DNA from: Hydrolagus colliei
Taxonomy: Eukaryota
NCBI GenBank assembly: GCA_035084275.1
Contig: CM068743.1
Location: forward strand, 130,696,001 to 130,760,000
Length of the DNA: 64,000 nt
Reading direction: 5' to 3'
Positions 51,249-52,930 of the stretch are shown here, one piece after another (within the stretch, counting starts at the first letter, position 1; every line of letters begins with the position of its first letter). A model generated the notes under the pieces. It did no database searches. It was given only the letters and a program-made list of their open reading frames with translations, and was not told the DNA's origin. A program made the translations under genes and the position numbers.

Positions 51249-51390
51249 ATAAGAAAATCTACACCCGAAATAACCTAGGCCACACACATTCCTAACCGTA
51301 CGATTGAATCCATCAATCACTGAGAATACAAAGCCAAACTATACAAAAACATTTAATCACTCGCATTCAGGAGCCGGTTAGTCCATATGT
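51249..51390. repeat. 142-bp inverted repeat, intronic arm (partner 52538..52679)
   Basis: Reverse complement aligns without gaps; about 4 mismatches counted by eye. Confidence 0.93.
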
Positions 51391-51445
51391 AATAGACTTA
51401 CCATCTGTGTTTGACCATTAAAGATATGTATTTTTATTTTTTCAG

Positions 51446-51592
51446 AAGCTGACACTGCTCCACCTAAACAGCAATCAGTGCTTGGATAAAGCCATGGAGA
51501 CAGAGAGCCAGGTGCCCACCATGAAAGACTGCAATGGCGGTCGTTCTCAGCAATGGATTTTGCGCAATGTCACACTTCCTGATATTTTCTGA
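51446..51592 (+). CDS. GALNT1: GALNT1 terminal coding exon (147 bp to TGA), lectin gamma repeat
   Basis: tttcag|[51 protein letters not shown]. The C-terminus matches GALNT1 (...RNVTLPEIF) rather than the paralog GALNT13 (...RNMTLGT). Confidence 0.95.
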
Positions 51593-52930
51593 TGGCTCTG
51601 TTGTGAGAATGCAGTGGGCTACCTCTGTGCACTTTGCTGCTGGACCAGTCTTAAACTGAACATTCATCTCAGCAGTGAATTTGTTCTTCCTTTGAGCACG
51701 TGGACTCATTTTGAAGGATGTTTAATGCATAAATTTGTGGTCTTAGAACTGCCACCTTTCTTCAGGCTTAGAGACTACAGCTTTTTATGGAGAAAATGTG
51801 CACACTGATGTTTACATGATTGTTTCTAATTGGTTGTAAAAGGGGAAAGTGAAGACAACAAGATGGCTTGAATCCCAATGAAATGAACTTGCGGTTCACA
51901 AAGCGAATACGGTTTAATCTAGGAAGTGGCCTGTCATATCACTGTTTATCTGTGTCAGCGGTATATCATTGTAATTTAATCGCACAATTGTTGTACTTTT
52001 CTGGGAAGTGACAGAACCGGAAGCTAAAATTCAAAATATTGCTACGAGTCTAAGTTTACCCATAGCAACCGATGTACACAATATCAGAGGGGAAATGCAA
52101 AGAATATATATCAAACATGTTCATTTAAATCATTTTTGTATGAACAGAAATCTATACGATGGGGATAAAGTTCATGGGAAAAGTTGAATAATACAATTAT
52201 GACAGACTTAATTTTATGTAGATTTTTATACCTCAATGAACAATTAACCAGTTCTAATTTAGAAAATTGTGACCATTCTGTTTGATTGCCTTAGTAATCA
52301 TTTCAGTTAACTTTTTCTTAAAATATGGTGTATTAGAATAGTAGAAGCCACCAAGAGATAGGAAAATGTTACACACATATTCTTTTTCTTTAAGTGCTAT
52401 TCCATACCATCTTTTATTTTTCCCTTTCTGTCTGGGTTTCTTATCCCAGTTTTGTGAACTGTTAGATCTCAGTCTTTTTTTTGTTCTTTACCCAAATAAT
52501 AATCCTCTGAGAACTGCTGCTACGAACCAGTCAAGGAACATATGGACTAACCGGCTCCTGAATGCGAGTGATTAAATGTTTCTGTATAGTTTGGCTTTGT
52601 ATTCTCAGTGAATGATGGATTCAATCGTATCGTTAGGAATGTGTGTGGCCTAGGTTATTTCGGGTGTAGATTTTCTTATTAATAAAACCAAATCAAATTC
52701 ACTGTAATGAATGCTTGTTCATCAGTGGACTGGGCCGTAGCTGGAGTTTTTACAGGAGAAAGTCTTCACTCCGTCCATAAATGGTCTTATTACTCCATTC
52801 GCAAAACTATAGTAGAATCTGTGAAATACTGGTGATTGCTTTTTTTTCCCTAATAAAATATTTAAAATGATTTAATTGGGTGTGTTTTCTACATGAGTAT
52901 CGGGCATTAATAAAGAATTATTTTATGCGT
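51593..52930 (+). other. GALNT1: GALNT1 3'UTR (3' end approximate); candidate AATAAA signals at ~52681, ~52852 and ~52909
   Basis: AT-rich, TE-poor sequence after the stop codon with three AATAAA hexamers; the true cleavage site cannot be read from DNA. Confidence 0.6.
52538..52679. repeat. 142-bp inverted repeat, 3'UTR arm (partner 51249..51390)
   Basis: ACATATGGACTAACCGGCTCC...GTAGATTTTCTTAT. Confidence 0.93.

Follow-up and report, generated by a model that had tools for sequence, protein, structure and literature searches.

A chimaera gene carries, in its last intron, a stretch of 142 nucleotides (nt) that recurs in inverted orientation in its own 3' UTR. Two questions follow: how the pair arose, and whether the duplex that it could form in the unspliced transcript has any role. 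They are addressed here with the window (the whole 64,000-nt stretch of DNA that was analysed) and with public sequencing data from the same organism and its relatives. The reading favoured, with a probability of about 0.72, is a local inverted duplication of single origin, made by template switching or break repair, that was tolerated and has since been drifting neutrally.

Judged by its sequence, the window carries galnt1 of a holocephalan, a glycosylation gene of a chimaera (ghost shark). The assignment follows from nine exon matches found in order by tblastn, from 2278 to 51592, and from the match of the C terminus to GALNT1 and to Callorhinchus milii. The exons share 79-97% identity with a vertebrate GALNT1 (P0009) and, for the most part, 88-100% with proteins of Callorhinchus milii, and the last exon matches GALNT1 in the PDB with an E-value of 1.6e-22. 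The reading frame that begins at 51446 encodes 48 residues of the lectin domain and a stop codon (51446..51592, the coding part of the terminal exon). These residues correspond to the GALNT1 C terminus, with 96% identity to Callorhinchus milii proteins and 68-81% to the other 21 of 24 matches.

All features of the locus lie on the plus strand. The penultimate coding exon (46447..46581, start approximate) was placed by tblastn, and its last 30 nt reappear as the unaligned letters of five spliced reads at 51446. A GTAAGT donor at 46582 opens the last intron of 4864 nt (46582..51445), which holds the inverted UTR copy, termed arm 1 (51249..51390). Between arm 1 and the exon lie 55 nt outside the stem (51391..51445), containing CTTAC (A at -46), TTGAC (A at -32), a pyrimidine tract and AG; the two pentamers are candidate branch-point-like motifs. 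The 3' UTR is placed at 51593..52880, its end being approximate and set by RNA depth in one relative (to about 52830) and by a contig of another that aligns to 52880. Within the UTR lies arm 2 (52538..52679), with 32 adenosines and TGTA at 52583, 52598 and 52665. AATAAA occurs at 52681..52686 (proximal), at 52852..52857 (distal, with a GT-rich stretch behind it) and again at 52909.

The description of the repeat given in an earlier note on this DNA holds. Arm 1 matches the reverse complement of arm 2 at 138 of 142 positions with no gap and ends 55 nt before the final acceptor at 51446, the AATAAA at 52681 comes right after arm 2, and the pair brackets the last exon of galnt1. Identical runs of 48, 17, 29 and 44 nt are interrupted by four mismatched pairs (51297/52631, 51298/52630, 51316/52612 and 51346/52582), which as RNA read C-C, G-U, A-A and A-C. 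A repeat finder extends the match to 148 nt at 96% identity, with 1147 nt between the arms. Agreement this close would arise at one register with a probability of about 1e-72, and a chance origin is ruled out. The window holds no third copy of the arm (best other match, E-value 0.29), and the arm junctions show no target-site duplication, terminal repeat or tail, again as the earlier note had it. At the junctions, 4 of 6 letters match beyond the outer end and none beyond the inner end. Neither arm folds better by itself than its shuffles (z of -0.49 for arm 1 and +0.63 for arm 2), Rfam returns four matches in the window, all tRNA-like and none in 51249-52679, and no tandem repeat occurs within the inverted repeat. 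A search of metagenome contigs with a 24-nt arm pattern gave 0 matches and is uninformative.

When 51230-52720 is folded, the two arms are predicted to form one long stem, with a duplex energy of -248 kcal/mol. The duplex that had been envisaged before splicing is predicted to be strong, long and near-perfect within a single transcript, and would be possible only while the last intron is unspliced; a short-lived pairing of the arms in the pre-mRNA is likely by this model.

Public data comprise 22 sequencing runs, 5 of them unlabelled or from gut metagenomes, across four organisms: the window's own (A) and three relatives (B, C and D). Four runs (X21, X6, X15 and X11) were aligned to 50980-53090, and the RNA evidence comes from relative B only. 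An independent sample of organism A holds 0.98 of 206 sampled words (a word check, not an alignment). As 139 of 2071 words need arm 1, about 14 of the sampled words would be absent without it (P 0.005). This recovery, together with arm 1 junctions in the contigs of the relatives, confirms both arms in independent data and opposes an assembly artefact.

Organism D, the most distant relative, contributes a 1062-nt contig (contig 7) that spans 51818-52880 without a break, at a depth of 6.3 beside 6.9 and 7.4 in its neighbours. Over about 1063 nt it shows 49 differences from the window and 7 gaps, and divergence is greater past 52880. Because it runs unbroken across arm 2 at the depth of its neighbours, arm 2 is ancestral, ordinary, single-copy 3' UTR, with no near-identical second copy in organism D, and is the source of the duplication. 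The intron contig of organism D aligns to 51220 and continues for 75 further letters, of which 30 are displayed, matching 51225-51242. No piece lies over 51221-51437, and depth is zero over 51264-51405. Were arm 1 present in organism D, a piece of about 60 letters would be expected to align, as pieces of 35-40 did, and none did. Arm 1 thus appears to be absent from organism D, where the empty site itself is unread, 45 of the 75 letters are undisplayed and 51391-51437 is uncovered; holes in contig coverage prove nothing alone, and a loss of arm 1 in this organism is possible.

In organism B, contig 11 begins at 51345, crosses arm 1 and continues through the end of the intron into the exon, whereas 52583 is the last position of contig 15 and 52554 the first of contig 16. 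The three meet at a 30-letter overlap in which 51345-51374 is the reverse of 52554-52583, which is the graph pattern of two inverted copies parting at 51375/52553. The shared piece has a depth of 84 and its neighbours 11-109, not hundreds. A single contig of organism C links 51254 with 52674 across opposite strands, leading from the intron flank through the arm to the inner flank of arm 2. Contigs of organism C have depths below 5, and any origin of this joint requires arm 1 beside the intron flank, so only the presence of arm 1 is taken from it. With its inner junction seen in organism B and its outer junction in organism C, arm 1 is common to organisms A, B and C.

Several irregularities in these alignments deserve mention. 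The contig of organism C (run X11, 51254/52674) has an inversion-like shape and one extra A in the run at 51254-51257; it is most likely a low-depth assembly walk or a fold-back library chimera. Recombination between the inverted arms that flank the last exon is conceivable in principle, and a true inversion in organism C is possible. Unaligned ends in run X6 at 52621 and 51871 were considered as a third copy or an insertion and rejected, both falling on GANTC sites and reading GANT+GATC or GANT+ANTC, joints that we take to be Hi-C ligation joints. Contig 12 of the same run (51452-51487, 6 differences in 36) resembles a paralogous GALNT exon and was set aside.

The age of the duplication can be bracketed from the UTR, which differs at 3 of 707 positions between organisms A and C and at 49 of about 1063 between A and D, about tenfold more. 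With arm 1 in organisms A, B and C, this points to a duplication much younger than the split from organism D. For scale, crown holocephalans are dated near 173 Ma in one analysis (available part of PMC11521621).

Organism B has the arm-2 letters of organism A at all four mismatch places, so all four changes occurred in arm 1. At 51346, arm 1 of organism B keeps the source letter, which places that change on the line of organism A. In the tally of differences for the RNA of organism B, C>G, T>C and C>T each occur a single time, every one of them at a displayed place beyond the arm, and A>T is missing. Arm 1 differs from its source at 4 of 142 positions (2.8%); between organisms A and C, the adjoining intron differs at 8 of 275 and the UTR at the above 0.4%. 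By Fisher's test, intron and UTR differ with p 0.0025 and arm 1 and UTR with p 0.017, and the four changes in arm 1 are unremarkable against the 2.1 expected on one lineage at the intron rate (P 0.15).

Two further changes lie in arm 2 of organism B, both G>A at places where organisms C and D keep G: 52553 (13/13 reads and DNA) and 52632 (15/15 reads). The first has no mirror in arm 1 of organism B, the sole C>T in that DNA run being at 51443. At the second place, an opposite-class read of organism B, located at about 52557-52654 by bin arithmetic, keeps G. We infer that this read and another at about 51153-51251 come from one intronic fragment whose arm-1 mate was placed on arm 2, and on this one read the 52632 change is probably not mirrored either. 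Compensatory change, the sign of a maintained pairing, is therefore missing from all six substitutions (five break a pair and one leaves G-U), a count of low power beside which 43 rows of differences are undisplayed, including two more G>A places from the RNA run. In a long duplex a few mismatches would be tolerated, and one of the four in organism A is a G-U pair. Of the two explanations that the earlier note had offered for the high identity, a recent templated inverted duplication fits; maintenance by selection or conversion is unsupported, with no change mirrored and arm 1 diverging at the intron rate. The pattern fits, without proving, an arm 1 that drifts neutrally like ordinary intron and a UTR source that is constrained.

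Arm 1 is an inverted copy of unique sequence from nearby and, judging by the contigs, appears to be absent from outgroup D. It would have arisen once, in an ancestor shared by organisms A, B and C that lived after D had split off. There, a DNA end or a stalled polymerase close to where the last intron ends would have copied, in inverted orientation, 142 nt from the 3' UTR of the gene itself, some 1.15 kb distant. Template switching or fold-back synthesis during break repair is the presumed step. Placed upstream of the branch-point region, the insert would have left splicing intact and been tolerated. Judging by its energy, arm 1 probably pairs briefly with arm 2 in unspliced RNA, with low-level editing possible, and it would drift at the intron rate, not kept by selection, while the UTR source stays constrained.

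Related events are described in the literature. Inverted templated insertions exist as germline variants in people, with the template within 100 bp by the definition of the search (available part of PMC8421209), and hairpin-primed synthesis yields inverted insertions, rarely over 10 bp per round (available part of PMC7165422). Like the templated insertions of MMBIR and the inverse-repeat insertions of polymerase theta, arm 1 copies unique sequence from its neighbourhood in inverted form and bears no marks of a transposon. It differs from the templated insertions described in the accessible portions of these sources in being longer (142 nt) and farther from its template (1.15 kb), with its empty site unread. 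In the literature searched, which was mostly open-access, neither this element nor any editing of galnt1 in chimaeras is reported, and the accessible portion of PMC5694776 contains nothing relevant.

Some observations weigh against a neutral duplication. The junctions lack clear microhomology, the power against selection is low with six substitutions, arm 1 is still present in three organisms, and all three TGTA upstream of the read-through AATAAA lie within arm 2. If the neutral duplication is correct, the locus offers a clean and relatively dated inverted duplication, not derived from a transposon, that gives a long duplex between intron and UTR and is tolerated. It could then serve to mark a clade and to illustrate how new RNA pairings originate, and would not be surprising.

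The earlier note had proposed that the pairing could couple last-intron splicing to poly(A) choice or act as an ADAR substrate before splicing. The RNA at hand is one poly(A) run from one sample of organism B, about 27% of it read and yielding 137 reads; the DNA of organism B comes from a different sample. All reads but one are of the class that fits a plus-strand transcript. In all five junction reads, 51446 is spliced to the final 30 nt of the exon before it, which supports 51446 as the acceptor, and retention of the last intron is not seen, with 0 reads at intron positions 51425 and 51443 against the 5 spliced (upper 95% bound 45%). Transcripts do extend past 52538 as had been assumed, arm 2 being present in the mRNA at 13- to 17-fold depth. 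Strong A-to-G editing is not found: none of the 32 adenosines of arm 2 is an A>G place at about 15-fold depth and a threshold of 3 reads, for which 15 reads give a power of 87% at a site with 30% editing, of 60% with 20% and of 18% with 10%. The only A>G place in the run, 51770, is also present in the DNA of organisms B and D. Given shallow RNA data from one sample, low-level editing or a tissue-specific effect may exist.

The proposed link to the poly(A) signal at 52681 is also unsupported in this run, where most transcripts read past it (depth 15 at 52689). Depth is 15.6, 13.6, 6.4 and 0.2 in four bins from 52613 to 52896, with a mean of 13.6 over 52684-52754, coverage to about 52830 and a depth of 0 at 52840. 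The AATAAA at 52681 is not the main transcript end in the organism B run. That at 52852 is likely to be the main signal, to judge from the RNA depth (no poly(A) reads are listed), from the GT-rich stretch and from its position near the end of the well-conserved stretch of organism D. In run X21, 5 of 18 molecules begin at 52664, within arm 2 and 15 nt from its end, and are possibly duplicates; these starts were rejected as a poly(A) site, since 52664 is upstream of any AATAAA.

The strongest competitor to the neutral duplication, and an unlikely one, is that the young duplex has since become functional. While the last intron is unspliced, it would hide the three UGUA before the proximal AATAAA, or it would slow removal of that intron, moving cleavage to the distal signal, or it would let ADAR mark the UTR before splicing. 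UGUA is the site of CFIm and may help a poly(A) signal. All three TGTA in the 100 nt before 52681 are in arm 2, with none before 52852 or 52909, and the read-through in organism B, the predicted duplex energy and the retention of arm 1 in organisms A, B and C are in keeping with such a role, as would be 3 of the 137 RNA reads, at 90-95% identity with their places undisplayed, which could be hyper-edited. However, conservation in organism D, in which arm 1 is unseen, reaches about 52880, which makes the distal end look ancestral and independent of any duplex. The uncompensated changes, the intron-like rate of arm 1, the lack of any A>G place in arm 2 and the five spliced reads with none retained also count against a switch, as does the position of the branch-point-like motifs, the tract and the AG, all outside the stem. 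A parallel is SLC30A9, in which an AluY lying 59 bp upstream of the last exon is tied to terminal intron usage (PMC13648404, available part). That element, AluY2, is an Alu with genetic association data, UTR pairing being unstated in the same part of the source, whereas at the present locus no effect is shown.

Quite unlikely is the fuller proposal that arm 1 acts as an intron-encoded antisense guard for the gene's own 3' UTR, hiding the proximal UGUA and tying poly(A) choice or UTR editing to the speed of last-intron splicing in one chimaera clade. Were it true, the locus would amount to a natural experiment with a date, in which a relative without the arm serves as the control; a switch would mean that a single step, using only sequence of the gene itself, can create a regulatory link between last-intron splicing and the choice of poly(A) site, with relatives that have or lack the arm available for comparison. 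As it stands, a selected role for the duplex is unsupported.

Long, near-perfect inverted pairs are the usual source of hyper-edited RNA across animals (PMC5625713, accessible text), and an exon that depends on an adjacent intron has to be edited before splicing (10.1101/870782, accessible text), so low-level editing is expected of any such inverted pair. The arms resemble ADAR substrates such as inverted Alu, SINE and LINE pairs in being a long near-perfect pair within 2 kb in one pre-mRNA. They are unlike them in consisting of unique UTR sequence rather than mobile elements, and no editing was found at about 15-fold depth. The long-range pairings termed PCCRs, for which a link to editing and 3'-end processing has been proposed (PMC8052449, accessible text), likewise place a distant pairing near a splice site and loop out an exon. 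PCCRs, however, are defined by conservation and supported by compensatory change, as far as the accessible text describes them, whereas arm 1 is young and uncompensated. Conservation of both arms in distant species is not found here, arm 1 being unseen in organism D and 2.8% from its source. The pair also crosses the splice site into the UTR, a configuration depleted among PCCRs according to the same text.

The duplication could have had a different template with the same neutral outcome, namely the gene's own RNA, copied by reverse transcription primed at an intron break. The source is exonic and belongs to the gene in question, the insert's plus strand has the antisense orientation that cDNA primed at the left end would have, and the window holds young LINE reverse-transcriptase frames. 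Yet the insert has neither poly(T) nor a target-site duplication, the copy stops just before AATAAA rather than at a cleavage site, and proximity in the DNA (1.15 kb) explains the choice of source equally well, which makes an RNA template very unlikely. Highly improbable is an old repeat kept alike by gene conversion between the arms and lost in organism D. Its opening is that the absence in D is read from contigs of a single outgroup; against it, no lineage-specific change occurs in both arms (four are in arm 1 of organism A only and two in arm 2 of organism B only), and one gain plus one loss would be needed. Barely credible, and largely refuted, is the reading of the arms as two fragments of a transposon family or as an assembly artefact: repeats abound in the window, with 81 inverted pairs at an E-value below 1e-8, but the arms have 2 matches in it, while of five other repeat arms examined four have 3 to 5, the organism D contig over arm 2 and the depth of the shared piece in organism B show no high copy number, and the junctions and word recovery reported above speak for a real pair.

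Inverted pairs of at least 50 nt with arms within 5 kb number 13 in the window. An inverted pair in an earlier galnt1 intron (5689-7069 / 10741-12107) is 1381 nt long at 97.8% identity and 3.7 kb apart, and both of its copies carry LINE reverse-transcriptase frames, presumably of a CR1-like element. Its potential duplex is longer and tighter than that of the arms and belongs to the same pre-mRNA, which indicates that such duplexes are tolerated here. The pair of arm 1 and arm 2 is unusual in being unique sequence, not in being a duplex.

Other repeats surround the locus. At 50252-50972, nested inverted repeats (50385-50439/50760-50814 and 50469-50531/50684-50746) sit within a second element, which has a relative at 55167-55382; they look like small non-autonomous DNA elements in the last intron. 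A 49-nt direct repeat at 80% identity (51941-51989 / 52995-53043), with copies 1054 nt apart, one in the UTR and one just past its end, is perhaps an older local duplication. Weak tRNA matches of 29.5-37 bits at 17808-17879, 29825-29896, 39786-39857 and 56145-56207 are probably the heads of tRNA-derived SINEs. Finally, an element family with G-rich or C-rich internal arrays of 24-nt units occurs in both orientations at 7426-8250, 24430-24840, 41865-42440 and 43407-43880, and in one intron 42009-42495 and 43407-43880 form an inverted pair 911 nt apart.
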